Source: a virus
Lineage: Duplodnaviria; Caudoviricetes
Reading direction: 5' to 3' (one strand)
Length of the DNA stretch: 53,915 bases
IMG/VR virus record: IMGVR_UViG_3300035702_000343
Span: 1 to 53,915 of that record
Part shown: piece by piece, positions 1 through 53,913 of the stretch
Layout of the letters: every line of letters begins with the position of its first letter
How positions within the stretch are numbered: position 1 is the first letter of the stretch
The notes under the pieces: model-generated
Seen by the model: only the letters and a program-made list of their open reading frames with translations
Database searches by the model: none
What the model was told of the DNA's origin: nothing
Position numbers and translations under genes: made by a program

Positions 1-877
1 GAGTTACTCCAACCCCCTCTAAAACCTCTCATTTTGGGCTTTGCGAGATGTTTTGTTTTAGTCCTGTTAAAACTATTTCTGACGGTTCAGAAATGTCGTC
101 GTCTTGATCGCTTTTAAATATCTGGCCTCTAGAAGAAATAGTTAATACCCTGGCGTCATCCCCAGGATCTCCCTTCTCCCCTTGTTTACTCTTACTGTAA
201 CTCAGGGTTTTGTTAAAAGTTGTACTAGTACCATTATAATAAGCTGTGATAGTAACAGTAACAGATGCTGTGTCTCCACTCATTGCAGTGAATGTATCAA
301 GCTCTCCGGTACTATGATTTATGTTGCAGCTTATCCCTGTTTGTGTTTTATTTGTTATGCGGTAAGTACCATCTGTGCCGCTTCCAGCAGAGTCATAAGT
401 AAATTGTTGAGTACCTCTATAAAGTAAGAACCCTGTATTAGCTCCCGAGTAATCTCCAGACTGTATAGTCCCTGATGAGTTTGCTGGAAAGGTGTGATTT
501 TCGTTCTCAACCAATAAGGTCCAAGCATTCGTACCTTCTTTAACTCTTGCAATAGTCACTTCATCAAAAAGCTCTCCAGACTCATAATCAGAAGACGTGT
601 CTGCATCTATATAACCACGAATTCTAACAAGAGTGTTAGTATCCATATCAGATGCTGTAAGCTTAATTACATCTATTTCTGTAGAGTTTTGGGTTATGGG
701 GGTATTGGAAATGTCTCTAAGAGTTACTCCAACCCCCTCTAAAACCTCTCATTTTGGGCTTTGCGAGATGTTTTGTTTTAGTCCTGTTAAAACTATTTCT
801 GACGGTTCAGAAATGTCGTCGTCTTGATCGCTTTTAAATATCTGGCCGATAGAAGAAATAGTTAATACCCTGGCGTC
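1..877. repeat. Direct repeat: 1-157 matches 721-877 (2 mismatches), 720-nt period
   Basis: Direct sequence comparison; mismatches only at 128-129 vs 848-849; in-frame repeat within the tail fibre gene. Confidence 0.95.
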
Positions 878-1753
878 TACGCCTGAAGGTGCTTTATAAA
901 CAGTCTCGCCAACACCTACATTATAGGTAGTTCCGTCTTCAACGTAAGTAGCGTCTCATTGGGCTGTATAGAGATCAGAGGAGTTAAAGTATGAAGAGCT
1001 TGTAATAGTTACTACTCCCGTAGAAGCGTTTACTGATACGCCCGATGGAGCTGCAGGCGAGGAGGTAAAAGTAAAATCCGTGTCGTTTTCTACATCTATA
1101 ATGTTCCCGGCGATGGCGAAGTTTGGAGTAAGTGTGATACTGGACGGGTTATACTCGTCTAGTTCTTCATTATAGGTAACAACAAAAGAAGAGGCGTTTA
1201 CCCAAGCCGTAAATCCAAATCCGTCTGTAATATCGGCGATTGTTATATGGTCATACTCGTTTTGACCATCGTAAGCAAAAATAGTTATAGTAGAGGTAAA
1301 GAAGTCAGAGTCAATAGTCAGGTTATACCCGTCTGTCGAAACTACCCCGGTGTCAGTGTCCTCTATTAAATTGTAAACCCCGCCAGAGGATTTTGTATAA
1401 AATTTAATATCTCCAGTAGAGAGTATCTCCTGTATACCATTTTCTGCCAGACCTACAATTTCAAAAGAAAGCTCCCCTATGCTATTTCTTATGACTGTTC
1501 CGTCTATAGGTCGTATATAATATTGTTCCAGAACTTTATTGGCGGCAACTATTATGTCTTGCCAATCTTCTTCGGTATAGTTCCCCCCAAAAAAACGGAG
1601 TTGGTAATTCCCCGAGTTTAGATTCTCAAAATAAAATTCTCCAGACTCATCAGTTACATCTACATCTACCCGGATATTGCTATTGTTGTAAACAACAACT
1701 TCTATACCTTGATAGGGTCGATCTTTAGGGAGTCTTCCTCTATAAGATGGCAT
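1..1753 (-). CDS. Tail fibre / receptor-binding-type protein with internal ~240-aa repeat; runs off window start; TGA=Trp at 956, 749, 29
   Basis: ORFs 956..1753 and 29..646 are in frame and joined when TGA is read through; Ser/Thr-rich beta composition, short collagen-like GEKGDPGDD, position downstream of baseplate genes. Confidence 0.65.
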
Positions 1754-1767
1754 TTATTAACTTAACT

Positions 1768-4254
1768 TTATGATAGATTATTTACAACTTTAGGACGCCC
1801 AGTAACGATGATTTCTCCCTTTATACTACAATCATTATTAGGGTCTGAGGAATCCGGATCTCATGCATCAATGACAAGTTTTCTAGTTCCGTCCGAAAGT
1901 ATACTTATTGGCAAGTCTGTAGCCTGTATAATTGTTTCTTCTTGGAAAGAGGGAACTTCTAACATAACTGCACTACTCTCTACTCCTTTTTGGTATACCC
2001 TAATTATACCCGGGTCTACTTGTGTGGCCCCCGTTACTGCATGGGGTATAAACTCAAGCTTTGTCACAATATAGTCTGCATCTATAGCAGACTCAAATAT
2101 TTTCCTATCTTGTTTAGATACCCCTGTTCTTAAGATCGTGGTAGTCGTTAGGCCAGTTGTATCATCAATAGTAACTTTATGTGTCCCTGTATTAGTATAA
2201 TCTCATGCCCTTGATATATGATAATCAGAGCCTACAACTGGGTCTCCGCCTCCGTCTAGAGCCGTTACTGTTCTTCCTCTAAGGAAATCTTGTCCAACAT
2301 ACATCTGAGTACCTGTCTGATCTTTATAAATAATATCTGCGTTGGTTCCAGTTATAGTAGAGATTTCAATGTCTATTACTTCAATATCTACTTCGGTATT
2401 CGCCAAAACGTTATCTGTGGGATAAATTCCTCCTCCCCCAGAAGTGACTTCCTTTATAATAGGATCGCTAACCGGGTAACCGTTCTGTAAAGCTCTTACC
2501 GCTACGGAAAATTTAGTAGGTTTACCAGAAGAGATATGAAGTGTCCTAGTTTGAATGACTTGTCTCTCTATTTGATCTGTATCTAAATTATCGAAGCTAG
2601 TAGAATTCAAATCTACTTGTGATGAATAAAGTATTTCGAAAGAGTGGGCTGAGTTAGGGAGATCTCCCGCATCTCTCCACCCTGATATTTGTACACTAAA
2701 CCCCTGTGCGTCTGCCGATGCTGTAAAAGCTCCAAGGGTGGAAATAGGTGGTAAAGCATTTTCAAATAAGGAGTCGTAGTTAACGACAGCTTGCCCACCA
2801 GATGAGTGATCAGGATCATAAGATCCAGCCTGCATCGTTTTAATAGCACTAAGGCTTCCTAAATTAAGGGCTTGTATAGAAACGGTATAACTCTCATCTA
2901 GAGTTAATTTCATTGTAAAGCTCGGATTTAACCTAAAAGCTTTATTTAATCTTTGTACAAAGCTATAGCCCTCATTAGAGTCTACTTGTAATAAATACTC
3001 ATTTACGTTGTCATCTATTATCCTGGCAGATGTTGATGGTGTAGTATCATCCTCTGATGAAGGATCTCCCTCTACTGTAAGTTCTACTTTATCTGCTGTA
3101 CTCCCTGTCCCTACCGCTGTGATTTTATAGGAATTTGTAGTCTCGGTAAAATATAAATTTTTGCCAACTACATCACCAGAATTAAAAGTAAAGGTTTCAT
3201 TATCATAACTTAGCTCTGAAACTTCAACGGTTGTAGAGGTTATAGTGTCTACAGCTAGCGCGTCATAATTTCATTTAAATGACACTAAACTATTCTTTTC
3301 CTCATGATTTGGACTAGGGGTAATATCATATATTCTTAAATTTGATGGTGTTGTTAAAGACCCATCTCCCGTAACCGCCGGCTTTCCATCTATGTAAAAA
3401 ACAGATGCTGTAGTACCTTGTAAATTAGTACTCTGCTCATTCCCAGATGTAAATGTTAAGGTATCTAAATTTAGTGTGGCTGTCGTAATCTCTGAATCAG
3501 AAACTCCGCTAACCGGTAATAAGGTTCTAAAACCTACACCACCATTAAAATCTACTTTCCCTGAAACCCCGTTATTTCCTGAGTTATCTCTGTCTTTAAA
3601 GAAAAATGCACCTTCATCAAATATACTGGTCGACAATAATAACCTGGTATCCTTTCTCAAGTCAGCTACCCGATAATCCCCTGACGTAGTAGTGTCATAA
3701 GATGATAGTCCCGCTGCAGAGGCATCAAAAGTTCCGGTAGAGTCCCATACAGCAGCCACTATAATTTGATCTGTAGATAGCGAACTCTTAACTGCTGCTA
3801 GATCTGTTGTAATCTCTTGTAAACTTACTGATACAGAGTCTGAGAAAACGGTCTTTCTGTTCAGGGACTCCGACCCGAGCTTGTCAAATACAAAAGCATT
3901 TACAGCTTTAACTGGGTCACTCCCTGCCTCTGCATAAGTAAGCTTGACGGCGTACCCTTTATTTGCATTAGAGGTTACTAGGTTGTCTGTGGTCAAAGAA
4001 CTTGTAATGTTTATATAGTTGCCTGCCGTTGTTAAGGCCTTACCCGAAGCTACACTTACTGTAGCATTTGAAGATATGAGCGTAGTTTCAAACTCTGGAC
4101 CCACTAGACCATTTGATATAGCAACATTTAGCCCCATAGATCCAAAGATCTCAGAAACTCTCTTCTTTAGGTTTGAAAAAGCTTTTGTTTGTACGCTATC
4201 TACTAAGTTCTCGAAATTTATTTGTGACCCATTGGGTGCTTTTATTCTATCCAT
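1768..4254 (-). CDS. Baseplate/tail-associated structural protein, 828 aa (TGA=Trp at 3271, 2203, 1861)
   Basis: Three track ORFs are in one frame with no TAA/TAG between them; ends TAA at 1768; located in the tail module. Confidence 0.7.
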
Positions 4255-8762: not shown

Positions 8763-9188
8763 TTATGTTACCGAAAATTTGTTTGTTACACCGTCTTCTG
8801 TTATGACCTCTATCTGAACTATTCAAGCCCCGTAAGCTACGTCCAAGTCTACTTCAATTAAGTTTAGGGCCCTTAGTCTTTCTTGTTTCCTCAGAGATCT
8901 ATCTAGAATTTGTTTTTGTTTTATCTTTTCTTCTATGTTTTTTAGCAGTACAGGAAAAGCTTCTTTAACTTGTTGTTCTTGGCTAAAATCTATAGCTCTA
9001 AACAAGTTATAAAAATTTTCTCCGAATTCAGGGCTAAACTGGTTGCTGCCCTTTGCAGTTAAAATTCTTTTGACTATATCTTGTACTAATTTGTCCCTCC
9101 CAGAAAGCGTACCATTTTTTGGGCTTCAATTAAATGTAAACTCTTTTGTTGAAGAATCAAAGTCTATTAGTCTAACATCTTTTTTCAT
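8763..9188 (-). CDS. gp25/GPW-like baseplate wedge subunit, 141 aa (TGA=Trp at 9126, 8823)
   Basis: GRDKLVQDIVKRILTAKGSNQFSPEFG is gp25-like; TAATG overlap with the upstream gene; directly precedes the baseplate J-like gene. Confidence 0.75.
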
Positions 9189-12017: not shown

Positions 12018-13142
12018 TTAAATAGTTATTTGTTGTTTAATGTTTTGCAGAGTATTCCTAATCTTTATGGCTAAAGATAGGAAATTTGCTACGGTATTAA
12101 AAGACTCATTTGTCTTAAACATGTTGTCAGCCGCCCCATTAGTCACCTCTTTAAGGGTAGACTCTGAAAACTTACTTAGGATAAAAGTAGTCTCCGTACT
12201 TTGGTTTTTCTCTCCAGATATAAAGTCAGCAAAATTATTTATTCTTTCACTCACATCTTGCTTAAACTCGTTTAGAGAAGATTCGTCGTCCCCATAAAAA
12301 TTTCTAATCAATGTGTTAAAATCTGTTATTCCAATACCACTGTAGTTGACTACCCTCTCAGCTATGTTGAATTTTAAAGTCGAGCCAGTGGTTATGAAGG
12401 ATGTAAAAATATCCAGATCCGTTATTAAATTCTCTTCAAAAGCATTTAAATAGGATTGTATATTTGACAGCCTTTCAGCATCTTCTTCTGAAAGTGTTAT
12501 ATTCTCTACACTGTAATTTTTTTCTAAATCATCAGAATCAAATAGGCCTGGTAAATTTTGTGTATGTCTAGCGATGACCCAAGACATTTCAAAAAACCCT
12601 AACTTATCATTGTTTGCGTTGTAGTTAACATTGAAGTTAAGGGGATACCCGTATACTAAATGATTGGCTATTTTCATTACCGCGATATTACCGGCCTTAA
12701 CAAGCTCTGTGGCTCTCATATGTCTGTTATATAGCTGGGTTATAGAGCTTTGCTGCATACCTCGTGAAGGGTTTTTAGACTTTGGCCAGTCTACTGCTTT
12801 CCCTGCGAATCTATATACTCGGGCTGTTTGTCCAAAAAACGATACATTAGTACTTCCCAGTGTTTCTTGTATCTGTGCTTTCTCTTGGAAAGACATGTTA
12901 AAGTTAGACAAGAAGAAAAAGTTTGTAATGTATTTTATTTCACTACTATCTCCTGCGTCTAATATCATTAGTGTTGCACCAGCAGGTATAGATGAGTGGT
13001 TAATATACTCCTCTAAATCTTCGGGTGCTGATTTTGACGAAGATATAGGAAATAATTCTGACCCAAATCCAGAAAACCCAGCGGCTGCGCTTAGGGGATC
13101 ATTTCAGTTAAATGCTGGTGAGGAGTCTTCAAATTGTGACAT
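12018..13142 (-). CDS. Tail tube-initiator/baseplate-type protein, 374 aa (TGA=Trp at 13104)
   Basis: Frame extends upstream to an ATG in a TAATG overlap; QEKAQIQETLG..FFGQTARVYRFAG segment; position after hub. Confidence 0.55.
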
Positions 13143-15781
13143 TAGTTTAATAGGGTTAGATTATCGTTTCCTAGAGCATCATTTGTTCTTAACTCTTTTA
13201 ATAAGGCATCTCTTACTTGTTTTCTGAACGCTAAGTTGACGTGAGCTCTTCTCGTTAAATTATAAGGTTTGAAAGCTTCTTTATCAAATTGAATGACAAA
13301 GTCAACAGTGCCAGAATCCTGGGTAGCGGATCCTAATTCTTTCCTGAGATCTTCTAATTCTTTAGAAAGCTCCTCAAACTTTTCCTGCGCCTCGATGAGC
13401 GCATTATAGGCATTTTCTCTTAAAGCTAGCTCATTTGGTTTCCCTAATGATAGTAATGTGTTAGTATATTTTCTATCATCAAAAAGGGCCTCAGCTTCAA
13501 GTATAGACTGTTTATAAGAATTTACTTCTTGTTGAAGCTTTACCTCCCGCCGTCTCATCTCTTCTTGGTCTCCGTTATCAATTATTTTCTGCGTAGTTCT
13601 GCCTTGCGCCTCCAATATTGAATCTCTTATTTTAAGACCCGCCTCAGTCCCTCTAAAAATAGAAATAGCATCTTTATAGTTTGATTTATTATCTATGTCG
13701 GATGCAGTGTCTATACCAATTGATGCAAAATAGTCTGCCTTACTTATTATAGATCTTGAAGTCTGGGAATTTATAAAGTCTTTTAGTGCGCTGCCTTCTT
13801 TAGGTATTTCATTATAAATACCTATGTACTTATAAATTGCCTCGTAAATATCCCGAGTATAGGCTCCACTATTTCTTAAATTGTTACCGGTTTCAGGAGA
13901 TAAGTCTGTGGCTATCCTGTTTTGTATATCACCACTGTCGTCACGTAAAATGTCTAAAATACTGTCATATGTGTCTACAAATTGTTCCTGCTTCTCCATC
14001 TTTTCCAGAGCATCAACGCCCTTAGAGAAAGCTTGCTCGTCTTCTGCGTATTGTTTAAAAATACTACCCTTCGAAGATAGCGTCCCTCTGCGTAAATATG
14101 GGTACAAGGTCTTGCCAATCTCTCTAAAGTCATATACGCTTTGGTCAAAAAGATATGAGTTTATGTCAGTATAAGGATCCAAAGTGAAGTCGTTGATAGC
14201 GTCTTCAAAATCTTCTTCTGTAATATCTTTTAGATCGTGCACTGTTCTTACTGCCCTCATTGTTATGGATGTCGAGGCGTAGCCTTGTGAAGAGACTGAG
14301 AGCGTTTTTGCTGCTATAACCCCTGTAAAGGATGGGCCCTTGTCCGGTTCAATGTAAGCTCCGGGTAACCCTACCATTGAGTAAGGAGTATATACTGCGC
14401 TTATAGACATATTTCTGGTGGCCATTCTAGCCTGTTGGTGAGCATTTAAAGTAAGTTCATTTAAAGGTTTTTTTATCTTGGATTGGTATTCCTCTTTTTG
14501 TGCCTCCTCTAAAGATTTAGTCTCTCCTATAATATCTTGTTTTTCCGTTTCTACAAAAAAGGAAGTTTGATTAACTACATTAGGTGTTATTCCACGGTAT
14601 GTTTCCTCTGAAGTTAATCCAATAGTGTTTTGGTCTATACCGTCCTGTGTAATATTTAGTTTAGGCTGTACAGCAAACGGTTTAAACCCTTTTGTAGAGC
14701 CAATGATACCACTTTGCATAACGCTGTGTACCTCACTGATGGTTCTTGTAGGCTCCGATAAAAAATTTCTTGAAAAGTTTATTTTACTAACTTGTTGTGG
14801 AAAAAGTAAATTACATTTTATAGGAGGAGAGTTTTCCATGTTAGGTAAAAAATATCCTCTTATGGGCGCTGATCTTTCTACATTCCCAGATTGAAATTGA
14901 AGAGATCCTGTATAAGTAGAAGGAGCTACTAAAGTATAGTGAAACACATTTAAGAACTCTACCACGGCCTCCATGAGTTTAATTGTCCCACCGTTTTTAA
15001 GAGAGAACTTAGATTCGGAAAGAGTGAAAAAATTCTCTATCAAAGCTTTTCTTTTAAAGGCTTCAATTTTTCCTATGTTGGGGGATGTAAAAATAGATTC
15101 TCTTATATTGAAGGAGTTCGAAACAAGTCCATAAAACATATCATACTCTTCAAACTTTTTAAGGAAGAAATCTATAAAAAGTTCTAGATCTCCTCCGCTT
15201 ATTTTATCATCACCTATTAATTTACTAATTTCATCTACTAACCCACTAAAAACTGTAAGCTTTGGCTCTCCCAGAGAATCATACTTCTCAATAGGATCTT
15301 CCTCTTCTCCTGCTTTTGTCTTATCTTGAAAATTAGAGTTGGTTTCCGGGGTGTCATTTTCTAGCTCCTTTTCTGTACTATTATAGTACTCGTATAAATA
15401 GTCACCCAGAGCATCTCCCCACTCCGCTGTCACCATAGAATCTTTTGGTCGCGCAGTCACTGATTGCCACTGAGATAATAAGGACGTAGCTTCAAATGAT
15501 ACCGCCCTCGAGGATCCTGTCTTACTATAGTTTATTTGTCTTATTTCTCCCTCGAATAATAAAATTTTATTAGCTGTGTTCTCTGGCTCGGGCCCAAATA
15601 TCTGAACTATGGTACCACCTAATACTCTTAAGCTACCGCTGTTGGCGGGGAATTGTACAGTCGCAGAGGGGAAGTCTCCCTCAATCTCCCTAATATTAAA
15701 TGAGGAAAAGGGAACTTGTATTCCCTCTAAGTAAACTTCAAATCCTGTATATTCTTGAAACGTTGTTTGTGTGTCTGACAT
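13142..15781 (-). CDS. Putative baseplate hub protein, 879 aa
   Basis: Long ORF immediately after the tape measure gene; N-terminal FEVYLEGIQVPF beta domain. Confidence 0.55.
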   Translation of the reverse strand: MSDTQTTFQEYTGFEVYLEGIQVPFSSFNIREIEGDFPSATVQFPANSGSLRVLGGTIVQIFGPEPENTANKILLFEGEIRQINYSKTGSSRAVSFEATSLLSQWQSVTARPKDSMVTAEWGDALGDYLYEYYNSTEKELENDTPETNSNFQDKTKAGEEEDPIEKYDSLGEPKLTVFSGLVDEISKLIGDDKISGGDLELFIDFFLKKFEEYDMFYGLVSNSFNIRESIFTSPNIGKIEAFKRKALIENFFTLSESKFSLKNGGTIKLMEAVVEFLNVFHYTLVAPSTYTGSLQFQSGNVERSAPIRGYFLPNMENSPPIKCNLLFPQQVSKINFSRNFLSEPTRTISEVHSVMQSGIIGSTKGFKPFAVQPKLNITQDGIDQNTIGLTSEETYRGITPNVVNQTSFFVETEKQDIIGETKSLEEAQKEEYQSKIKKPLNELTLNAHQQARMATRNMSISAVYTPYSMVGLPGAYIEPDKGPSFTGVIAAKTLSVSSQGYASTSITMRAVRTVHDLKDITEEDFEDAINDFTLDPYTDINSYLFDQSVYDFREIGKTLYPYLRRGTLSSKGSIFKQYAEDEQAFSKGVDALEKMEKQEQFVDTYDSILDILRDDSGDIQNRIATDLSPETGNNLRNSGAYTRDIYEAIYKYIGIYNEIPKEGSALKDFINSQTSRSIISKADYFASIGIDTASDIDNKSNYKDAISIFRGTEAGLKIRDSILEAQGRTTQKIIDNGDQEEMRRREVKLQQEVNSYKQSILEAEALFDDRKYTNTLLSLGKPNELALRENAYNALIEAQEKFEELSKELEDLRKELGSATQDSGTVDFVIQFDKEAFKPYNLTRRAHVNLAFRKQVRDALLKELRTNDALGNDNLTLLN

Positions 15782-15789
15782 TTATTTTA

Positions 15790-18700
15790 TTATCTTGCTG
15801 GGTTTTTTTCTGCATCTACTACTCTGATTGCATTTCCGCCATTTATTGTTGCGAAGGCGCTATCTAACCTATCCATTACACTTTCTACGCCCCTTTGTTG
15901 CATACTAAAAAATTTCTGAAGATGTTCTGAGGCACCCTCCCATTTCAGGTTTGACATAATATGAGATCCTTGAACCTTACCAACACTTTCGCTTACAGCT
16001 TCCATTAATTCTCCGATTTCCATAGATCCTTTAATTCTGCCCTCTAACTTGTTTCTGTCTAAACCGGCGGCCTCTAATTGATTTAGGACGTCGGACGGAT
16101 TACCTAAGACTCCCTCTATAGTTAAATCTTCACCTGAACCTATTTTTGCTAGCTGTGATAATTTTTTATAAGCAAAGCTTTCTAATCCTACATCGGTGGG
16201 GACTGCAAATCCTAACTGGTTGGCAAGTTCTCTTGATTGTTGCGTAATGTTTGCCTCTAATTGGTATGCACCACCTGCTCCATATAACGCTGCTGCGGAC
16301 GCAACGCGGTCTCCGTGATGTCTGGATATAAACCTGGCGATATCTCTATCTTGTGCGTTACTTAGTTGCGAAACATCTATTGCTCCTGATCTCGTTATTT
16401 GCTCGGTTAACACTCTCTGTCCCTGTTCAGTTAGACTACCAATTCTACTTTGGGCAGCCCCTTCAAGCAATAATCCGCTAACGTTTCCTAAAGCAGTTTC
16501 CTGTAAATCTGCTCCATGACTAGTCATGCGTTCCGCGGTCATACCTGATTCAGCTAATGACCTCCCCCTAGAGATGACTTCAAGCTCCCTTTGGTCCATC
16601 CCCATTACACCATCTTTAGCCATCTGGTTGAGTACAGCACTTTGTATGCTAGAATCTACGTTCTCAAAAGCTCCTCCAACCATTTGGCTTACTTCCGTAT
16701 CTATTAGAGTTTCAATTTGATCTCTAGGGACTCCTTTAGCACTTAACTCTTCCCGTCTTTTTTGATAATGCATAGTTAGTGCAAAATCATCTCTGGTGCT
16801 TTGCACTGATCCGCCAGAAAATGTATCTGATCCTAATCTCTCTGCTAGAAGTGCATCTCCTTTTGTGATTGCACTTTTGTCAAAACCTCTAGCGAATTCA
16901 AACTTATTTCTGAAGGTATTAAAATCACCCTCCCCATAAGTTCCGCTCTGTCTTAATTGATCAAAAACAGTTTTGGCTTCTATTTTTGCAGAATCTCCAA
17001 AATCAAATCCCGTCCCCATAGCTTCGAAACCTTTTGAGCCTCTTATTCTTTCTAGAGCTGCTCTTACTGTTGCTGGTTGTCTATCTATGCCCATTCGTAG
17101 GGTGTCGTTTTTTCTATCCATACGTCTTTCAAAATAGTCTGACGTACCATCTATAATATTCTCATATAAGTCTTCTGAAGCATCTACCCTCAGAAAATTA
17201 GCGGCACCTGCCCTCATTCTTCCGAACCAGGACACATCCTCGCTAGCCGCCATAGTGTCACTAATTTCTCTTGTGATCATTCCTATTTCTTGGCTCACAG
17301 CGTCATTTGCGCTCACGTCTTGTGCCATCGATATAAAACTTTGTGCTTGATTAGCGCTTACTCCATACATATTCATCATTGCGCTTGTTAAAACTTCTCT
17401 ATTAACTGTCCCGTCTCCGTTAGCTAGGTTTGTTTGTTTTACAAGCTCCATTGCATTCATAAATGGCATCGATTGTTGCATCTGCTCTGGCAATGAAGCC
17501 ACTAGCTGTGCTTGTTGAGCCGGTAGACTTATCATTCTTCTAGGGTCCCCGGAAAAATAATTTGAAGAAGCTCCTAACATATCTTGCATACTATCTCCTG
17601 GAATAGAGCCTCCTAAAAGCCCAGAGGTATATAGCATTCCTTGGCCACTCATCATAATTCTATTTGTGGCTTCCATATTAGAAAGAGCAAAAGACTGTGT
17701 TCCTCCCGCCTCGTGTATTAATTGTCTAGTCACGGGGTCAGCCATTTTTAAACGCTCGGCCTGCATTAAACTCTCTCTTGCCATATCAAAGGCGACATTA
17801 GACCCTACCCCTGTGCCTCTCATCATCTCTACACCCTGCATACCGAACTTGCTTACACCTACTGCTCCCAAACCTGTAACTTCTCCTTCGTAAGCTAGCT
17901 GGGTTCCTACGGTATCCATCTCTCGGGTAGTTGCTACCATTTCCTGCTGTAGTTGGGCCATTATTTGGGCAGCTTCACGTTGAGTAGATCCTATTTTATT
18001 TGCAAAATCTCTAGTGTTCTCAATCACTCCCTGCAATACCTGATCCATTTCCTCATAATTAGATACTCCAGAAAATCCACCTGCTTGTGCAAAATCAGCT
18101 ACGTTAGATTCTAAATACTCCATACTATACCCCTCGGAAAATCCTTCTGCGGAGTATGCTTTATCTTGTAGCCTGCCCGCCATACTTCTGGCGTCGTCTA
18201 TAGATAACTTCCCAAAACTATCACTAGCTATTCCCTTAAAAGCTCTGGCTAAAGATTCTCGTTCCTTTGCCTGTCTTGCCGTTACTGCAAATCCGAGGTC
18301 AGCAAAAGCCCCCACTGTACTACCTATAACAGCTCCCCCGAATCCGCCTACTATTGCTCCGCCTACTGCTCCGGCCGCCATGAATCCGTTACTTGTTATA
18401 AAGTCTGAAGTCATATCCGACATATTAAGAGCTGCTTGGTCTCTATAGTCACTCATAAAAGCTCCAGCAGTGTTAGGGTCGTACCCTCTGTAGAAAGGAT
18501 TATATAGAGCGCTAGCTGATTGGAAAAAACCTTCTGGCCCTGTCGACATTGAGGGAGGCATAGATGATATACTTGGATCAATAGGTTGTGATATCAAACC
18601 TATTTTTCGCATATCCTGGTTAAATTTATTATAGCCTAATCTTAGATATTCTGCGCTACTATCTAAGAAAGAGGTGCCCCCAGACATCTGATCAACAGCA

Positions 18701-34727: not shown

Positions 34728-34798
34728 CTTTACTGTACCAATTAAAATCTTTTTTGCATTTTTACTTTTAATATGGTAACTTATTTAAAAGTAATCAA

Positions 34799-36135: not shown

Positions 36136-36189
36136 CTCCGCACCTCCACCACACGGTTAAGTGTAACCCAAGTTGTAGATTGCATGTTT

Positions 36190-36223
36190 AAAGGGAGCCT
36201 CTTTATTGAGGTTCCCTTTTTTT
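36190..36223 (+). terminator. Intrinsic terminator after tmRNA
   Basis: AAAGGGAGCCTC-loop-GAGGTTCCCTTT plus T-run. Confidence 0.85.
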
Positions 36224-36244
36224 ATTTAACTTTAATTTTATCCC

Positions 36245-36517
36245 ATGATTAAAATTTTAATATTTGCTGCTCTTGTAATAGGAGCTGCCTGGCTTATTTT
36301 TATAAAGATACCCGAGATTGTGGGTTCTGGAAAAAAGAAATCAAGTTCTGAGAATTCTTCTGATGAAGGTTTATTAAATAAGCTTACAAAAGAAGAGCAA
36401 AGAGCTCAAGCCGCTAGACAAGCCTTACTCGACGAGGCAGAACAAAAAGACGCTGAAGCTACCAAAACACAGGCTGAAGCAGACACGGTGCGTAAAGCAC
36501 TACAATCGTCACAATAA
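36245..36517 (+). CDS. Small membrane-anchored coiled-coil protein
   Basis: N-terminal hydrophobic helix followed by a charged helix. Confidence 0.65.
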   Translation: MIKILIFAALVIGAAWLIFIKIPEIVGSGKKKSSSENSSDEGLLNKLTKEEQRAQAARQALLDEAEQKDAEATKTQAEADTVRKALQSSQ

Positions 36518-36536
36518 CCCTTAATAAAATAATACT

Positions 36537-36722
36537 ATGAAAAAGAATAATAAGACAAAATTTACACTTGTATTGGTCGCAGTTGCTGCTATACTTGTTG
36601 CCATTTTTGGTCCGGCTATGGTAGAAGACGTACCTAACGGCGAGATTGTGGTTAACCAGGTACCTGTTTCAGGTGACATCGAAGTCTGGTCAGACCCAGG
36701 TTTAAAAATTGACGATGAATAA
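36537..36722 (+). pseudogene. Possible truncated SPFH/band-7-like membrane protein (N-terminus only)
   Basis: TM helix then EDVPNGEIVVNQVPVSG....DPGL, resembling SPFH N-termini; stops at 61 aa with TAA. Confidence 0.4.
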
Positions 36723-36852
36723 ATTGATCCAACCGGGTCAATTGTAAACCAAAGTTAGTAGGTTGGTTTATGGGTTAAGGGTAGGGAAGGGCTGAAAAGC
36801 TCTTCCCGATTCCTTATCTATTTTTCTTTTTAGCTTAGGATTTTATATACAA

Positions 36853-36882
36853 TAAAAAAGCCCGGCACTTGGCCAGGCTTTC
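36853..36882 (-). terminator. Terminator of the sheath/tube operon
   Basis: Imperfect GC stem with A-run on the + strand downstream of the tube gene. Confidence 0.6.
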
Positions 36883-36901
36883 ATGTAAGTATTTGGGAGT
36901 A

Positions 36902-37603
36902 TTAAAGCCCAGATGCATCCAAAGGTTTGACCCTGGAAGCTGATAGGGTTACATTCTCTGCAAGAACAGTAGCGTTAGCGCTAATCCCAAAAGAATGGGA
37001 TTGAATATAACACTTCTCTAAATAAACACCTCCATAAGGCTCTCCATCCATATCAAAAAGTACAAATCCTAAACCTAACGGTCTATTGAATATTGCAGAG
37101 CCTAAGTTGCCCCAGAATTTTCCTGGGTTAGCATTTTGACTCTCCGATTGAGTATCGATAATACCTGAATCCGGGTATGGCATGGTTGGATTATTTAAAG
37201 AGTGGCTTGAACCGCTTCCAAAATCTGCTGATGAGGGAACAGTCGGTGTCCCACCATCGTTTGACTCTCTTTCGTACATTGCATAAAAAAGAGACGGGCC
37301 ATCGAATAAAACTCTACTTAAAGAAGCTCTTACTCTTACCCTAGCTGGAATGAAGAAAGGTGTTCTACCTCCTATCTCAAATATTTCATTTAATTGTTTA
37401 TTTTGCTGTAGCTGTGCACTCTGTACTAACCCTATTGGGTATAAAGAGGCCGCAGACCCGGATAAAACCGGAGGTCCACTAACAATAACAGCACTCTCGC
37501 CAGAGAGATACGCACCATTCAGGGCACCTTCGTGCTCGTCGGGCTGTACATTCTGTTTATTTGGAAAGTTAGCTTTCCAGTTTGATAGATTTTCTAGTGA
37601 CAT
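36902..37603 (-). CDS. Tail tube protein
   Basis: Follows sheath; PIGLVQSAQLQQNKQLNEIFEIGG and YLEKCYIQSHSFGISANATVLAENV beta pattern; AGGAG SD. Confidence 0.7.
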   Translation of the reverse strand: MSLENLSNWKANFPNKQNVQPDEHEGALNGAYLSGESAVIVSGPPVLSGSAASLYPIGLVQSAQLQQNKQLNEIFEIGGRTPFFIPARVRVRASLSRVLFDGPSLFYAMYERESNDGGTPTVPSSADFGSGSSHSLNNPTMPYPDSGIIDTQSESQNANPGKFWGNLGSAIFNRPLGLGFVLFDMDGEPYGGVYLEKCYIQSHSFGISANATVLAENVTLSASRVKPLDASGL

Positions 37604-37620
37604 TTATTTTCTCCTAAGTA

Positions 37621-39225
37621 TTAAAATTCTAGAGTTATTTTTATGTAATTAACTGGATAAAGCGGTGTTATCGCCAGATCCACTTTTATAGTGTCTGGTT
37701 GAACTTCATCTTGGTATACATTTAAAACGTCAACAGCTCTTACATAGCCTAGATCTACAAGTTCGTTTCCTGCACTTACTATCGCAGCCCTAAGCTGTTT
37801 TAAAAACCCATCTGATATTACAAATTTCCCAATTAAAGGTGACACTAGGTCCCTTATATATTTGGAAGCGTAATCAATTTGAGTAGTAATAGATAACTCT
37901 CTAGTTTGAATTGTTGTTGCGTTTGTAGACAACTGGTGTCTATTTATAATAGCTCCTACTCCCCTCTCTTCTAAAATCCAGGTACCGCCTTCTGCGATAG
38001 TATTTAGCTGTGATTTATTAAAGTGGTCATTACTCTTATAAAGCATAGAGAATCCATTTATTCCGCTGTTTGTTAATGGCTCTTCTGGCCTCTTACCAGC
38101 TACAGCACCTACAAGGGCTGCACCAAAATAGTATCCGGGTACCGGATAATAAACTGTTACGAAATCAATATCATTTGCCTTTAAAGTAGTAATTGCTGAA
38201 GAAGTTATCTCACTAAAAGCTCTAAACTTGGTTGATCCTGCAGTAACATTTGTTACGAACTTAGGCTTTAAACTAAAAGTTGATCCAAAAACGGCTTGTA
38301 TGAAAGAGTCTGAAAGAGTGCTTACATGAGCTCTTGTTTCAACATACCCCGCGTCTGGGTGTATAGAAAAGAATCTCTTTTCGCCTGACGCTGCACTGAC
38401 ATTTTGGATAGCTTGTGCTACCTCTTGTTTTTCAGAATTAGTAGCCGGTGTAGTTTCTTCTGGGGAGTAATCTACTCTTTTGGAAACAAAGGCGATACGT
38501 TCTTTCCCCTCAGCGGGTACTGACATCGCATTACAATGCGTTGCAAACTTATCCGCCTCAGATCCTACTCTAGTTAAAGGTGCTATTGCATAAACTTTTT
38601 CTTTATTTTCAAGAGCTGTTACCGCGTTTGAAAAGCTAGATGAATCACCGCCTGTACCTGGATCTACTCCAAGAATATTTGTGCTTACTCCTCCATTTGA
38701 CATGGCCAGAGAAGCTCCATAAGCTAAAGGGTTCCAAGGAACCGGTTGTCCAACATAGTCTATAATGTCTTGAGCCTCAATTACTTTCTGATAGTTATTA
38801 TTTAAATCTGTTCTTTTTGCTAAAAATCCAACTCTTACATTGGCTTTATCAGCATTGTCTACATCGAACCCAGAAATATCTGCTGTAATTGTGATATTCT
38901 CTCCGGATACGGTAAAATCTGTGTCCTTCACTAAGTGTTTAACTGAACCGATAGTGCCGTTTGGCCCCTCAGTCCTAATGAGGTCTACAATAACTGTGTC
39001 CTCAATATAATCTGTATGTGAAGAAAATGCACTTCCAGAAACTACGAGCTCACTTCCATCATACGATGTCGTATATATAGAACTATTCTCATTATCGTCT
39101 CTCTCAGGATCTTGCCAGTAATAGCCGGGGCCTACAACACAAGATTCTAAGGTAGGATCCGGTAATGGGAAACTAGCTGTCTTCTGGACCTGTCTTACTG
39201 TAGCAGCAGGTTTTGTATATGCCAT
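37621..39225 (-). CDS. Contractile tail sheath protein
   Basis: MAYTKP N-terminus, PEEPLTNSGING, C-terminal QPDTIKVDLAITPLYPVNYIKITLEF. Confidence 0.85.
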   Translation of the reverse strand: MAYTKPAATVRQVQKTASFPLPDPTLESCVVGPGYYWQDPERDDNENSSIYTTSYDGSELVVSGSAFSSHTDYIEDTVIVDLIRTEGPNGTIGSVKHLVKDTDFTVSGENITITADISGFDVDNADKANVRVGFLAKRTDLNNNYQKVIEAQDIIDYVGQPVPWNPLAYGASLAMSNGGVSTNILGVDPGTGGDSSSFSNAVTALENKEKVYAIAPLTRVGSEADKFATHCNAMSVPAEGKERIAFVSKRVDYSPEETTPATNSEKQEVAQAIQNVSAASGEKRFFSIHPDAGYVETRAHVSTLSDSFIQAVFGSTFSLKPKFVTNVTAGSTKFRAFSEITSSAITTLKANDIDFVTVYYPVPGYYFGAALVGAVAGKRPEEPLTNSGINGFSMLYKSNDHFNKSQLNTIAEGGTWILEERGVGAIINRHQLSTNATTIQTRELSITTQIDYASKYIRDLVSPLIGKFVISDGFLKQLRAAIVSAGNELVDLGYVRAVDVLNVYQDEVQPDTIKVDLAITPLYPVNYIKITLEF

Positions 39226-40883: not shown

Positions 40884-41010
40884 GTGCTACTTCTGCTCCT
40901 TCTTTTTTAATCTTATCTTCTGCTTTTTCTTGTTCTACTTCAAGAGCTATTTGTGACAATAAATCTTTGTCCCTTACCTCATTTCTCTCTCTTTCTACTT
41001 TTTTAATCAT
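40858..41010 (-). CDS. Small charged hypothetical protein, 50 aa (absent from track)
   Basis: ATG in TAATG overlap; MIKKVEREEIEVRDKDLLSQ...; fills the gap. Confidence 0.55.
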   Translation of the reverse strand: MIKKVERERNEVRDKDLLSQIALEVEQEKAEDKIKKEGAEVARDYTVVED

Positions 41011-41807
41011 TACCTATAATCCTCGATTGAGTATTCATAAATTTCATCGTCTATGTGTATGACACTTAATTGTGCTTGCTGTTCTATGACTACTCCTAAT
41101 AGTTCCAGGGTTCTTACTCTTTGTATAAAAAATCTTTTATCTGTTTTTGCGTCAACTACAACATCACCTGCTTCTAGTGGGGGACGGTTCAAAGTAGTAA
41201 ACATGACATCACTAGGATAAAATTCTCCTCATAACCCTATGTCTTTTACCTGGGCTGCTGGGGTTACCATTCCTCTAACTTTTTGCGGTTTAAAATACCC
41301 CTCTCTTCAACCGGTTCCCCAACAGTTACAATCTGAACATACGTCTGTAGTCTGTTTAAATAATACTGGGTCCCAGGAAACCTCGCAACGAGTTCCCCAT
41401 GTCCTTCTTTTTAAAAGGAAAAAATCTCTACCGCTCTTTTTTCTAAGAACCAGATCTTTCTGCCTTCATATTTTTAACCACTTTAAATTAGGTCTTTCGT
41501 TATTAAGGTAGTAATAATCTGTTATGGAGTTTTCCTGGGTATCAGTGTTTTCTATCTTTAGTTTGTAGTACCACTGTCTTGTCCCGTGTGCTAATCCGCT
41601 GGGAGTAAAGTCTTCGTAGACATATGTGTTTGCAGATATGCCGGAATCTATAAGGTTATATTCGGATAAGTTGTTTGAAGGGGCCTGTGAGACATAAATA
41701 GATACTTCATAATCATTTAAGTCTTCCACAGTATCTTTAAAGGCTCACTCTAGGTCTAGTGAGTTTGGCTTGTTTCTAAATACGGAGAGTTTTTCTAAAG
41801 CTATCAT
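41010..41807 (-). CDS. Putative head-closure/neck protein with Zn-binding segment, 265 aa (TGA=Trp at 41745, 41466, 41307, 41229)
   Basis: Read-through yields GTRC...CSDCNCWGTG[W]REGY...PPLEAGDVVVD; single frame. Confidence 0.7.
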
Positions 41808-41812: not shown

Positions 41813-42295
41813 TTAACTAAGGCTATCACTGTATTCGCTATAAGCCCCACCATATCCTCCATCAATATTTTTGGCTCTTTTAAAGGCTTGAGCGGCTCTC
41901 ATAAAACGGGAAATAAGCATATTAAAAAACACGGTGTATCTACCATACTTATCTTGGTCTTTTACAGTTATTCCACCAGAGTCATTGTATGATAAAACAT
42001 TCCTTGCGCTTAGTATCCCTTTGGATATTAAAACATTTAGAAAAGCTCCGTCCCTTAAAATAGTTCACGGGATTTCTGATATTTTTTGAAAATGTAAAGA
42101 GGTAGGCTCAATTTCGTAGTTCATCTGTTCAAACACATCTTGCAATGCATAATAAAGTTCAATATCTGTATTTTCTTGGGCCTCTGTAAGATCATTCAAT
42201 TGTTCGGTATCCCCTAGAAACTTTCTTAATCTATCAACCCTGCCCTGCATATCTGCGGGTACTGAGGAGGCACTTAATTCGGCGTTCGTTAACAT
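41813..42295 (-). CDS. Putative head-tail adaptor, 160 aa (TGA=Trp at 42065)
   Basis: LRKFLGD..QLNDL...IP[W]TIL...RNVLSYNDSGG; located after MCP; promoter TTGACT-N17-TATATT at 42316-42344. Confidence 0.65.
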
Positions 42296-49039: not shown

Positions 49040-50602
49040 TTATTGTAATAAATGTCCTACGCCCATGTGCATTGCCGCTGTAACTACAGCAAAGATTGAA
49101 GAGTGCACAAAGTCATCTGGACCTATGTTTACAAATTTTTGTTTGTTTTTCTTTTCATCGTACTCTATAACGATATTTTGCAAGTCTTTTGCAAAAGGTT
49201 CGGTATCTTCCCATTGTGGTAAAAGAATTTTTCCTGTCTTTAGTAGATGGAAAAATCGAGTCATGATATAATTTCTGTTAAGTGTATAAGCCGGCATTTT
49301 AGGATTATACCTAATAACCTCTTTTTGTGGATCTAAATGCTGGAACTGTAAAACCTTTTCTATTCCCAGTCTAGATTTAAAGACTGAGTTAGGTGCTTCA
49401 CCCATCCCATAATCTGCTGCTAAAAAAGCGCAATTTCATTTCTTCATAAGTCTTGGAACTTCCTCATGTATAAAGGAATATTCTGCTTCCTTACCTAAAA
49501 ATTTCTTAGCGTAAACAATTTGTATCTTTCCTTCTCTTTCTTGTGCAATAGTAATTACTGTGTGGGAGTTTTCTGAGTTTACGGGGCCATAATCAATTCC
49601 CATTATACTCTGTCTACCTTTAGATTGTTTATCAGGCTCTCCAGTCATCTCAAAGTTAGGGTTGCAAGCGTCTACAATTTGCTGTGTAGTAATCGGTATA
49701 GATCCTGCGTCATACTCTAGTCCTAGGGTCTCATTATAGAAGAGGGCCTTAGAAACGTTTTCCATTTCATAAATTACATCTTTATCTCAGTTTACCCAAG
49801 GAGAGTGCGCAAAGTGAAGCAGGCACACTCGATACCCCTCCATATCGGGCATCTTGTTTTTATTGGTGAATGTAGATACCCATTCTCCTTGAAGCTGTCG
49901 GAGATCCATAGGTGTTCCACATTTTTCACATATTAAAGCTGTCCTTCCAATATTCTCAGGACCTAAGATATTCCAATGATTACAAGCATCACATTTTATA
50001 ATGTATTCGTATTGAGTACTCTTAAATCAAAGATCGGCTAGAGTACCCTTTGTTCTTTTTGGGGTTCCGGCATAGATGGTGTTCTTAATTTCAGAACGTG
50101 CCATTGTTTTTCTAATAACTGTGATAACGTCTTTAAGTAAATCCTGGGTCTCATCGAAAAGATTTATGTCAGCAGATATCCCTCGAACACGATCGGCATT
50201 TAGAAGAGCATATCTCATATTGATCACTGACCCGTTTGCAAATTCTTTCTTTAGAACCCTTTGTACTCTGTTAGGGTCTAAGAAATTTTGCTGTATAATA
50301 GGTGAGGTATCAATTACCGGTTGGATCTTATCACGTGAAAATTCCTCTGTCTGATCTTTGGCCGGAGATACATAAAGTTGTCTAAGGTAAGGTCTCATCA
50401 AGGCCCGGGTAAGAAGCATGTTGGCCAAAGTAGTTGACTTGGCAGTCTGACGAGAAAACTTCATAACAATATCCTTGGCAGGGGTGTTATAAATCCTGCG
50501 CATATGTGGATAATCGTCCAATGAAAACTGTTCTCCACTGAGCATGAAAAAGTTCTCAGCGAAGTCGGACATTGTAAGTGATACTACTTTCTTTTTAGAC
50601 AT
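49040..50602 (-). CDS. terL: Terminase large subunit, 520 aa (TGA=Trp at 50027, 49787, 49436)
   Basis: SRQTAKST Walker A, RVRGISAD..LFDETQD, GTPK, CxxC..CxxC insertion, FYNETLG, GIDYG, PDDFVHS. Confidence 0.88.
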
Positions 50603-50633: not shown

Positions 50634-50828
50634 TTATAAATTTTCTCTTTGTAGTCTTTTTGCTTTTTTCAATCTTTCTCGGCGGGCTTCAGAAGGTTTG
50701 GTATAAAATTGGTTATCTTTATACTCGTCTAAAATTCCTGCTCTCTGTACTTTATTTTTAAAAATACTTAATGCTTTTTCTAAATTATGGGGACCGTGTA
50801 CTTCTACGGAAACTCTATTAACGCTCAT
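50634..50828 (-). CDS. rpsU: Ribosomal protein bS21
   Basis: NLEKALSIFKNKVQRAGILDEYKDNQFYTKPSEARR matches the bS21 pattern. Confidence 0.9.
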   Translation of the reverse strand: MSVNRVSVEVHGPHNLEKALSIFKNKVQRAGILDEYKDNQFYTKPSEARRERLKKAKRLQRENL

Positions 50829-51648
50829 TTAATGTTCTTCAATCTTTTGTTTCTTTTAATTCTGTGAATAGGTTACCAAAGGGTCCGTGTTCAATAAACT
50901 TGAATACTATGTTTTGCTCTGATTCTCTACCTATCCCTCAGCCTGTAGAATAAGAAAATTTACGGCCTTTGTCAATGTTTGAAACAAACTCGTATAAGTC
51001 TTTGTACCCCTCAGATACTTCCCTCTTCTTTCTCTGAATCGATTCATAGGTTATTAAATCTCCGGGAGATTTGCGTGCTCTTCTTAGGGCTTCTAAATCT
51101 TTTTTATCATTCTCTAACTCAACGGCCATTCTCTCAAACTGCCTTGCTACTGACCGAGCTACAACGAGCTCTGCCCAGTACTCATCGTTAGGATCTCTTA
51201 TTTCATTATAATTCCCTGGGTCTCTAATCCATCTGTCTGATACAATAGAATAAACACCAAAATCGGTATCGCTCATACTTTCTTCTGAATCTTTATTCCA
51301 AGGTGTTAGAAAGAAGTTTATGACGTGATTCGTTCCCGGTATTCTTTTATTATTAATCTTTTTTGTGGCCTTTGTCTTTTCTTTGCTCGGATCAAAGGGA
51401 TCCACCAAAACCATAATGTCTACATCAGAGTTACCCGTCCACTTGAATCCAGTAATTGATCCCAGAACATACAGATCTTTAATATGGTCTAAGGGTACCA
51501 CTTTTTTAATCTGATCTATTACGATGCGTTTTACACTCTTTTTCATTTTTTTATCAGAGTCTCATACGCCGGGAGCTAGTTGATCTTGTACGGGGTCTAG
51601 TATTCCCGCTAGTTTACTTCAGATCAGAGATGTGTTTTGGTCTTTCAT
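50818..51648 (-). CDS. Pol-beta-superfamily nucleotidyltransferase, 276 aa (TGA=Trp at 51619, 51562, 50938, 50839)
   Basis: LGSITGFKWTGNSDVDIMV (GS...DxD); frame extends to ATG 51648 and TAA 50818 with read-through. Confidence 0.75.
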
Positions 51649-52669: not shown

Positions 52670-53306
52670 TATCTCTTACGTAAGTATTATTTGTGTAGCT
52701 GGGTGCATTTGCTCTTGCAATTTCTAAGGCCTTTTGATGTTCCCTTTGCTTAATTCTCGCATTTCTAACCTTTGGATAGTGTCTAGCTAGATCTCTAATC
52801 ATCTTCTCTTTAATGTTGTTCTCAGCGATTGCTGGTCCAATTCCTAAAGTAAGTGGTCCCATCCATTTTCTATTTCTAAGAGAAAAGTGTTTTTTACTCT
52901 CGTCCTGGATTTTATCCCGGGCCATCGCCTCTAGCTTATCATCAAAATAAATGCCTAAAGAATCTTCAATATCTTCTACTCCTAGTGAGGCTTTTTTAAG
53001 TATTTTATAAGCTGCCTTTTTGTGTTTTCCTTCTACTTTACCTACCTCATAAGCACCTACGCCCAAAGCGGTCGTTTGTACTGCTTTGTTTTTAGATAGG
53101 TCTCGGGCTTTTACAGCTCCTCGCATAACATCCATTTTAGAGGGTGCTTTATCCATTAAGTAGTTCTTTGTCTTTTCCGTTGCCTTTAGCATATCGCGCT
53201 TTGTTGGGGTATTTTTTGGAACAATACTTTTAATACGGCTCATTAACCCTCTTAAAAAGTTAGCGTCCTTGTGCATTTCTCCTAAAAATCCGTCTAATTC
53301 GTTCAT
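52662..53306 (-). CDS. Basic hypothetical virion-type protein with K-x-A motifs
   Basis: ORF track; short internal repeat PTKRDMLKA/PSKMDVMRG. Confidence 0.6.
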   Translation of the reverse strand: MNELDGFLGEMHKDANFLRGLMSRIKSIVPKNTPTKRDMLKATEKTKNYLMDKAPSKMDVMRGAVKARDLSKNKAVQTTALGVGAYEVGKVEGKHKKAAYKILKKASLGVEDIEDSLGIYFDDKLEAMARDKIQDESKKHFSLRNRKWMGPLTLGIGPAIAENNIKEKMIRDLARHYPKVRNARIKQREHQKALEIARANAPSYTNNTYVRDSE

Positions 53307-53307
53307 T

Positions 53308-53913
53308 TTAATTTATCCTTAATTTGTTATTTGAGGGGTTCATGTTTCTCAGAGTAGGTATATTTTTAAAACCCGAGTTTAATTCTACAGCTTTTTCTAA
53401 ACTTGTTGTAGTAGCTTGTGGCTTTGAGGAAAGAGCTCCTATAGTTGTTACATTTCCTCCTAAATAAGATTTACTCTTTCAACCGGATTTTGAACTGGCT
53501 CCGATCATGCCTCTTACAAAATTAGGGATCCTTTTCGCTGCTGCTGATCAAAACCCCTCTTTCTTTAATTCTTTATGATGTAACTTGTATTTTCGTGATC
53601 CAAAAGCCCCTGGACGGTTTAAAACTGTTTTTCTTATATGATCCATAGCTTTTTCTGTCGGCATTGGGTCAGCCTCTCTAAATTCATTTTCGGTATCAGT
53701 GTGAGAAAGTTGTGTCATTTGCCCGGGGTTCATATTTTTGTGTTCTTTCATACTTCCCCCATTTTTTTCTAACTTATCAGCTACTGCCGTAAATACTGGG
53801 TATCCAATTGCGCCTGCTGCTATACTTTTTACAAGTCTGGGTGTAACTCCACTATAAAGACCCTTCAATCCTTTTACTTTTTGCGTCTTTATTTTAGACG
53901 TTATCTTTTTTAG
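53308..53913 (-). CDS. Partial hypothetical protein (5' end outside window) with mitochondrial-carrier-like motif; TGA=Trp at 53548, 53479
   Basis: Open from window end to TAA 53308 with read-through; GLKGLYSGVTPRLVKSIAAGAIGYPVF. Confidence 0.6.

Follow-up and report, generated by a model that had tools for sequence, protein, structure and literature searches.

The phage fragment IMGVR_UViG_3300035702_000343 (Duplodnaviria; Caudoviricetes), which originates from lake water and was analysed over its whole length of 53,915 bp (hereafter the window; 38% GC), contains 41 unambiguous in-frame TGA codons in 16 genes, and comparison with related loci shows that TGA is used at these sites as a sense codon equivalent to TGG. 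We consider it probable that the fragment stems from a phage with a standard-code host, in which TGA has been reassigned to tryptophan in late genes and which depends on a UCA-anticodon tRNA encoded outside the fragment. The window appears to cover about a quarter of an uncultured jumbo phage genome with a full size of roughly 200 kb (CheckV completeness of the record, 27%); no terminal repeat was seen in the window, the first 20 bases of which recur at position 721.

In-frame TGA codons and which residue they encode

If TGA is treated as a sense codon (translation table 4), the window encodes 56 tightly packed genes with 44 in-frame TGA codons in 19 open reading frames (ORFs), of which 41 in 16 genes are unambiguous and three are doubtful (Table 1). 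The original prediction, made from the sequence alone, had arrived at the same count of 41 codons in 16 genes. Under table 11, these genes break up into 57 pieces, short ORFs that follow each other serially in one frame, and their predicted fusion upon TGA read-through was borne out by the 56 abutting genes of the table 4 model. The interruptions are TGA only, never TAA or TAG, and the 55 complete genes terminate at TAA (46) or TAG (9), as had been stated for the fused genes, while the TAATG overlaps described as frequent are found at 2 of 51 same-strand junctions, i.e. their frequency had been overstated. Coding density, which had been proposed as a check, increased from 0.64 of the window covered by ORFs of at least 200 aa under table 11 to 0.79 with TGA read through; however, reading through TAA gives 0.79 as well, by fusing neighbouring genes, and therefore coding density alone is a weak test.

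Similarity to known proteins continues across the TGA codons. The PHROG profile match of the large terminase extends over residues 4-508 of 520 and spans three TGAs, the RecU-type resolvase (g19) matches PHROG 843 at residues 4-152, spanning two TGAs, and the sigma factor g23 has a profile match at residues 45-296, with SigA structures aligning from residue 33-36 onwards and thus across the TGA at residue 68. The baseplate J-like protein g04 aligns to relatives over residues 2-1024, and relatives carry TGA at the same columns as the window. For positions 1-13200 of the window, contigs of four further lake-water runs were compared; they deviate at 19 positions, none of which lies within the 21 TGA codons of this region. 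Assembly errors had been named with the original prediction as a refuting outcome. The sequencing runs listed included none of RNA.

For the assignment of the residue, window proteins were aligned to 80 related IMG/VR loci with an X at each TGA, by which a bias of the alignment is avoided, and the codons were then read off. The loci were fetched via an alignment query, the only search that succeeded; single-protein scans of viral contigs with the terminase or g02 as query returned no matches. At the TGA columns of the window, the 605 non-gap cells contained TGG 372 times and TGA 74 times, followed by Phe (56), Leu (33), Ser (13), Gly (7) and Cys (0), and the columns with TGG in the window read TGA in relatives 105 times, which indicates an interchange of the two codons. 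Some database proteins were possibly called under table 4 themselves, a circularity that is avoided by counting standard-code loci only, i.e. the 46 loci without any in-frame stop. In these, Trp occupied 220 of 335 cells at the TGA columns (Gly 4, Ser 6, Cys 0), which is the outcome of the homologue-column check that had been called for, and 427 of 678 cells at the TGG columns of the window. We conclude from these counts that TGA and TGG columns behave alike in standard-code relatives.

The terminase and other genes illustrate this. Of the 120 terminase homologues listed, 107 are near full-length, and Trp is found in 104, 107 and 99 of these at the three TGA sites; the related loci have TGG or TGA in 76/79, 75/79 and 71/80 cases; the figures of 104 and 99 belong to the motifs LADL[W]FKS and KK[W]NCAFLAADYG (TGA-encoded residue in brackets), for which Trp had been predicted correctly. 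The same applies to CWGTG[W]REGY, with 21 TGG and 6 TGA codons out of 31. In 32 full-length homologues of g04 (among 150 matches listed), five of seven TGA columns have Trp as their most frequent residue and the remaining two have Phe or Tyr, and the g04 homologues of three complete recoded relatives, G003, G004 and G005, contain 7, 6 and 7 in-frame TGAs. For the tail genes, 32 TGA columns could be aligned with G003, which has TGG in 11 and TGA in 8 of them. One motif of the original prediction had been described as FN3-like: its VS[W]DAVTG aligns to a TGA in G003, but the label itself is not backed by any Pfam fn3 match. In RecU, the TGA at residue 121 corresponds to Trp in 3/3 alignments with solved RecU structures. 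Overall, 20 of the 41 sites fall into Trp or TGA columns, 4 into Phe or Tyr columns and 13 into columns with other residues, and 4 have no column.

Late genes, early genes and the code of the host

The genes of the window are arranged in three strand blocks. The minus-strand blocks encode tail-fibre-like, baseplate J-like and sheath-initiator proteins, the tail sheath, the major head protein, the large terminase and conserved head-module proteins, and the plus-strand block encodes a helicase, nucleases, RecU, dUTPase, a sigma factor, a family A DNA polymerase and a split class II ribonucleotide reductase. Judged from its sheath and baseplate J genes, the phage is contractile-tailed. No GenBank phage has a terminase more than 26% identical to its own. 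Its nearest relatives are G001 and G002, at a terminase identity of 68%; both records are fragments, of 69 and 70 kb and with a completeness of 35% and 38%. Synteny with G003 (205.5 kb record, 97% complete) extends over nearly the entire window.

The TGA codons are concentrated in the late modules (tail, baseplate, head and packaging), where we counted 38 TGA vs 46 TGG codons, compared with 3 TGA vs 57 TGG codons in the genes outside these modules (Fisher odds ratio 15.7, p = 5e-8); lysis genes were not identified in the window. A like concentration of TGA is found in G003, where it affects the tail block, at 45-70 kb, and the head block, at 180-200 kb. In the early block of G003 (75-175 kb), 16 of 135 ORFs end at TGA, and the next in-frame TAA or TAG is reached at a median of 8 codons, vs a median of 11 for true TAA/TAG stops, whereas in the late blocks a stop follows TGA tens to hundreds of codons onward. 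This spacing indicates that TGA still behaves as a stop in the early genes of G003 and as Trp in its late genes. In the window, early genes that end at TGA would be g20 and g33 at most. The TGA of g20 may be a true terminator, and that of g33 may be a true stop as well; the latter stays ambiguous because a homologue search for g33 yielded nothing but its own 122-aa table 11 call.

The code state is patchy among the relatives. The 80 related loci divide into 29 with TGA recoding, 46 with the standard code and 5 unclear ones, and in-frame TAG was not seen in any of them. In a quick terminase tree with SH-aLRT (Shimodaira-Hasegawa-like approximate likelihood ratio test) support only, which comprises 64 of 81 sequences after 17 shorter than 450 aa had been dropped, the window lies within a fully supported clade of seven recoded rows, and the recoded state needs at least 5-7 changes. 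In the complete standard-code relatives G006 and G008, TGA terminates 25% and 30% of the ORFs. The stop-like early TGAs of G003 and this patchiness favour, indirectly, a host with the standard code. With such a host, the early genes would be readable by the host code, some of them still ending in TGA in G003, and the late genes would be translatable only after the phage has expressed an opal-decoding tRNA(UCA), encoded outside the fragment, and the host tryptophanyl-tRNA synthetase (TrpRS) has charged it with Trp. As the late genes would need this tRNA, TGA could act as a built-in delay or lock on the expression of virion genes.

A host that uses table 4 itself, such as a member of the Mycoplasmatota, would share its code with the phage, and no switch would be involved. 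TGA as Trp fits this scenario equally well, at most two window genes could end in TGA, and a phage gene for release factor 1 (RF1) or TrpRS would be unnecessary. In addition, RecU is typical of Bacillota and Mollicutes. Nevertheless, we regard a table 4 host as improbable, since TGA accounts for 3 of 60 Trp codons outside the late modules but for 38 of 84 inside, TGA in the early block of G003 is confined to ORF ends with stop-like spacing, and sister phages use the standard code with TGA as a regular terminator. Moreover, recoded relatives have a UCA tRNA of their own, which standard-code relatives lack (see below), and the phage comes from lake water, from which we know of no free-living table 4 bacteria. 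A scan of contigs from metagenome-assembled genomes gave three contigs and no host signal; the bins in which relatives occur (Saprospiraceae, Dojkabacteria, Bacteroidales) are no evidence of a host.

The putative decoder

As stated in the original prediction, neither a UCA tRNA nor a release-factor gene was found in the window; a pattern scan detected no UCA anticodon stem-loop, and a tRNA-Lys(UUU) is the sole tRNA. For the 80 loci surrounding the terminase genes, ARAGORN, which had been checked on the window, gave no tRNA. The complete recoded relatives G003, G004 and G005, with 25-29 ARAGORN tRNAs in the stretches scanned, contain a UCA-anticodon tRNA-like gene in 3/3 cases, vs none among the 24 and 17 tRNAs of the complete standard-code relatives G006 and G008. 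These genes are located 13-21 kb downstream of the g04 homologue and at least 6.5 kb beyond the tail-fibre genes where the window stops, i.e. past its left end. Those of G003 and G004 are characterised by a long variable arm, a G at the discriminator position and a CCA end that is encoded in the gene, and a strict pattern for such long-arm UCA tRNAs matched six stretches, from G003-like records and G004 only.

The decoder is probably encoded off-contig in this phage as well and missing from the window because the contig is a genome fragment (about 27%). It had been proposed that the decoding machinery "lies elsewhere or is unusual", and the incomplete record and the off-window genes of the complete relatives make elsewhere the better half of this statement. 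The left end of the window lies inside a repeat of about 720 nt in the tail-fibre gene g01 (1-1753), the product of which has a 50-aa segment twice, at residues 290-340 and again at 533-584. Position 154 is where contigs of other runs part from the window, and in one run the contig loops from 720 back to 1; this internal repeat breaks the assembly.

Some features of these tRNAs deserve mention in their own right. The UCA tRNA of G003 passes the gathering threshold of the Rfam tRNA-Sec model, although TGA columns in the recoded genomes are Trp. A kinship with its own tRNA-Trp(CCA) was considered and dropped: the two match at 59 of 73 positions in a global alignment, which gives no usable evidence of identity, as unrelated tRNA pairs score 48-58. 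G003 and G005 also encode a tRNA with the amber anticodon CUA, and no in-frame TAG was found in their genes homologous to the window. It is possible, albeit rather unlikely, that Trp is inserted by a non-canonical, tRNA-Sec-shaped tRNA (long variable arm, 6-bp D stem, UCA) without a phage RF1 or TrpRS, whose gene would lie just past the left end of the window. If so, either bacterial TrpRS would accept a class-II-shaped tRNA, or positions with conserved Trp would receive another residue late in infection.

A dedicated suppressor tRNA would be dispensable if host tRNA-Trp(CCA) read TGA by near-cognate pairing, perhaps together with phage interference with release factor 2. In accordance with this, a UCA tRNA is missing from the 54 kb of this phage and from the 69 and 70 kb records of G001 and G002, and suppressors were detected in just 35% of TGA-recoded genomes (Borges et al., bioRxiv 10.1101/2021.08.26.457843; here and below, statements on published work refer to the portions of the sources available to us). 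However, all three records are fragments, and the complete recoded relatives have a UCA tRNA-like gene without exception. The base following TGA in the window, which is similarly distributed to that following TGG, also speaks against near-cognate reading (A 19, G 17, T 5, C 0), as TGA-C is the leaky stop context and is not enriched. We consider this explanation slightly less plausible still than a table 4 host.

An amino acid other than Trp has very little to recommend it. Glycine would be expected if the host were a table 25 bacterium (Absconditabacteria or Gracilibacteria), phages of which exist (PMC10746230), and Cys, Ser or selenocysteine could be considered as the UCA tRNAs of the relatives resemble tRNA-Sec or tRNA-Ser and as there are precedents for an insertion of Ser or Cys by tRNA-Sec-like tRNAs (PMC5389517). 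The column counts given above, with 7 Gly, 13 Ser and no Cys against 372 Trp (TGG) codons and with Gly in 7 of 605 non-gap cells overall and 4 of 335 in standard-code loci, exclude Gly and Cys at the level of sequence comparison, and selenocysteine would require a selenocysteine insertion sequence (SECIS) element at each of the 41 sites. That the TGAs are sequencing or assembly errors, or that the genes are decaying pseudogenes, is favoured by none of the observations and next to inconceivable in view of the independent contigs, the TGAs shared with relatives, the exclusive use of TGA among the interruptions and the uninterrupted profile matches.

Several observations weigh against a phage-borne, late-gene-specific reassignment of TGA to Trp. 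At 13 of the 37 TGA sites with a homologue column, this column is neither Trp nor aromatic; the TGG sites of the window are comparably variable, with Trp as the commonest residue at 18 of 29. Two motifs put forward in the original prediction belong to the variable group, as the counterpart of RecU FFLI[W]F (residue 100) is Arg or a gap in solved RecU structures and His in G003, and that of sigma GER[W]AYEKL (g23, residue 68) is Ile, Val or Glu in SigA and Lys in G003. Three TGAs of the early block (two in RecU, one in the sigma factor) break a strict early/late split, and, conversely, the late genes for the major head protein and the tail sheath lack TGA. Furthermore, no RF-1 or class Ib synthetase (TrpRS) domain was found in the window or in G001 and G003-G005, and no suppressor tRNA was seen in the window or in the fragmentary records of G001 and G002. 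Finally, the UCA tRNAs of the relatives are odd, two being tRNA-Sec-like with a long arm and the third a partial match, and their charging with Trp is presumed.

Other features and relation to known systems

The positions of the features described here are compiled in Table 1.

Table 1 Recoded genes, other features of the window and corresponding features in relatives. Coordinates refer to the window unless a relative is named.
Feature	Position	Strand	In-frame TGA codons and remarks
Strand block 1	1-19689	-	
g01, tail-fibre-like, 3' end off contig	2..1753	-	956-958, 749-751, 29-31; CarboxypepD_reg domain; no homologue column among related loci or G003
g02, tail protein, 828 aa	1768..4254	-	3271-3273, 2203-2205, 1861-1863; G003 columns TGA, Thr, TGA
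g03, tail protein, 465 aa	4294..5691	-	5647-5649, 5242-5244, 4717-4719, 4711-4713; G003 columns Ile, TGA, TGG, Phe
g04, baseplate J-like, 1025 aa	5684..8761	-	7874-7876, 7325-7327, 6971-6973, 6794-6796, 6710-6712, 6599-6601, 6080-6082 (seven codons); Pfam Baseplate_J
g05, sheath-initiator / baseplate protein	8763..9188	-	9126-9128, 8823-8825; G003 columns Ile, TGG
g06, function unassigned, 701 aa	9188..11293	-	10760-10762; G003 column Ala
g07, sigma-70-like	11297-12016	-	zero Trp codons
g08, 374 aa	12018..13142	-	13104-13106 (codon 13); from gene geometry only (TAATG junction with g09 at 13142); no homologue column found
g09 and g10, large proteins, 879 and 1042 aa	13142-18918	-	no TGA
TGA-free stretch (g09, g10, then helicase, nuclease, exonuclease, ATPase)	13142..24139		Trp written TGG only
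Strand block 2	19822-34727	+	
g19, RecU-type Holliday junction resolvase	24176..24682	+	24473-24475, 24536-24538; PHROG 843
g20	24657..24986	+	ambiguous: 24972-24974, three codons ahead of TAA
g23, sigma-70 family factor	25798..26700	+	25999-26001 (codon 68)
Stretch with PolA, split ribonucleotide reductase, tRNA-Lys, tmRNA, tail sheath	26701..39225		no in-frame TGA besides ambiguous g28 and g33
Split class II ribonucleotide reductase	29594-32250	+	N-terminal gene 29594-30556, C-terminal gene 31270-32250
g28			ambiguous: 30543-30545, upstream of likely ATG at 30549
Homing-endonuclease gene	30549-31301		
g33	33508..33930	+	ambiguous: 33874-33876, overlaps g34 ATG as ATGA
tRNA-Lys(UUU)	34799..34872	+	
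tmRNA gene	35046-36150	+	
tmRNA 5' part	35046-35398	+	starts GGGGGTG; Rfam tmRNA 36 bits, E = 7e-11
tmRNA intron core	35383-35622		RF00028, 88.4 bits
HNH homing-endonuclease ORF	35578-36084	-	
Strand block 3	35578-53913	mostly -	
tmRNA 3' exon	36136-36150		CTCCG CACCTCC ACCA; closes T stem and acceptor stem with G3-U pair
g39, Lys-rich, 256 aa	39243..40013	-	39876-39878; from gene geometry (abuts g40); sole homologue cell Ser
g41, conserved head-module protein	41010..41807	-	41745-41747, 41466-41468, 41307-41309, 41229-41231; columns (29-31 related loci) 19 TGG + 10 TGA; Leu/Ile/Val; 21 TGG + 6 TGA; 21 Phe + 9 TGA
g42	41813..42295	-	42065-42067; 34 aligned loci: 14 TGG, 2 TGA, 11 Ser
g49, conserved head-module protein, 609 aa	45704..47533	-	46787-46789, 46124-46126; residue 249 column variable; residue 470: 55 TGG + 9 TGA of 72
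g52, terminase large subunit	49040..50602	-	50027-50029, 49787-49789, 49436-49438; PHROG 675, E = 4e-69
g53, nucleotidyltransferase-like	50818..51648	-	51619-51621, 51562-51564, 50938-50940, 50839-50841; residue 29: 31 TGG + 11 TGA of 51; residue 237: 26 TGG + 11 TGA of 52; residues 10 and 270 variable
g56, 5' end off contig	53308..53913	-	53548-53550, 53479-53481; columns Gln/Lys and Gly/Ile, n=5; alignment to G001 covers both
Synteny of g01-g24	G003 64 kb down to 5.9 kb		
Synteny of g37-g40	G003 1.5-5.4 kb		
Synteny of g41-g54	G003 183-195 kb		
UCA tRNA-like gene (L114)	G003 70650-70746	tail-gene strand	97 nt; Rfam tRNA-Sec 48.5 bits (gathering score 47)
UCA tRNA-like gene (L126)	G004 65787-65884	tail-gene strand	98 nt; Rfam tRNA-Sec 32.5 bits
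UCA tRNA-like gene	G005 76169-76225	tail-gene strand	plain tRNA model 30.5 bits, positions 8-63 only
CUA tRNA	G003:105393-105469		
CUA tRNA	G005 about 115366-115440		

The window also contains a transfer-messenger RNA (tmRNA) gene that is split by a group I intron in the T loop and was missed by ARAGORN; its tag frame ends with QPAIAA followed by TAA, and the intron harbours an HNH homing-endonuclease ORF on the opposite strand. A link of the tmRNA to the recoding was rejected, as it is present in 3/3 complete recoded relatives and in 4/4 standard-code relatives that are at least 89% complete. The two halves of the class II ribonucleotide reductase are separated by another homing-endonuclease gene, and Rfam gave no group I intron match at this split. 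The large proteins g09 and g10, encoded between the tail and replication modules, match neither Pfam nor PHROG and are conserved in G003 at 28-30% identity; Trp codons number only 4 over their combined 1921 residues. There are two sigma-70-like genes, g07 inside the tail module and g23, whose resemblance to SigA extends from region 1.2 to region 4 and which contains a single in-frame TGA.

In phages of Mycoplasma and Spiroplasma, TGA encodes Trp according to the host-wide table 4 and is expected to be common in all genes; unlike in these, TGA is nearly absent from the early genes here. Late-gene-biased opal recoding has already been described for gut phages, and the phage studied here is a further case. 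As described by Borges et al. (bioRxiv 10.1101/2021.08.26.457843) for gut phages, terminases have TGA aligned with Trp, TGA accumulates in structural and lysis genes, and close relatives use the standard code. Our phage resembles their Agate and Jade clades in the in-frame TGA at Trp positions of the terminase, in the patchy code state within the clade and in the suppressor tRNAs of some genomes only. It differs from both in that it forms a separate lineage by its terminase, was found in a lake instead of the gut, has relatives of about 200 kb and, in two of these, UCA tRNAs with a long variable arm, and from Jade also in that the window and four relatives yielded no operon with RF1 or TrpRS. 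The tRNA-Sec-like phage tRNAs known so far are described as Ser, His or Cys acceptors (PMC5389517).

Dual-coded crAss-like phages, in which opal is reassigned in parts of the genome and the standard code applies to the rest (Mgcod, 10.1101/2022.06.29.495998), show a similar division; our phage is set apart from them by its contractile tail, i.e. the sheath and baseplate J genes, alone. Dense in-frame TGA is shared with the phages of table 25 hosts (PMC10746230), but there TGA is Gly and matches the host code, whereas here Gly was almost absent from the TGA columns of standard-code loci. Outside gut habitats, alternative codes were reported for 0-0.65% in a jumbo-phage survey (PMC13037316).

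In practical terms, translation with table 11 costs the 16 recoded genes their annotation, and this record as well as the 29 of 80 related IMG/VR loci need to be translated with TGA as Trp. The matched complete genomes, recoded (G003-G005) vs standard (G006, G008), are usable for studying the evolution of the code switch and the tRNA responsible. In our reading, opal recoding with a late bias, so far described for gut phages, also occurs in a freshwater lineage of phages with genomes of roughly 200 kb.

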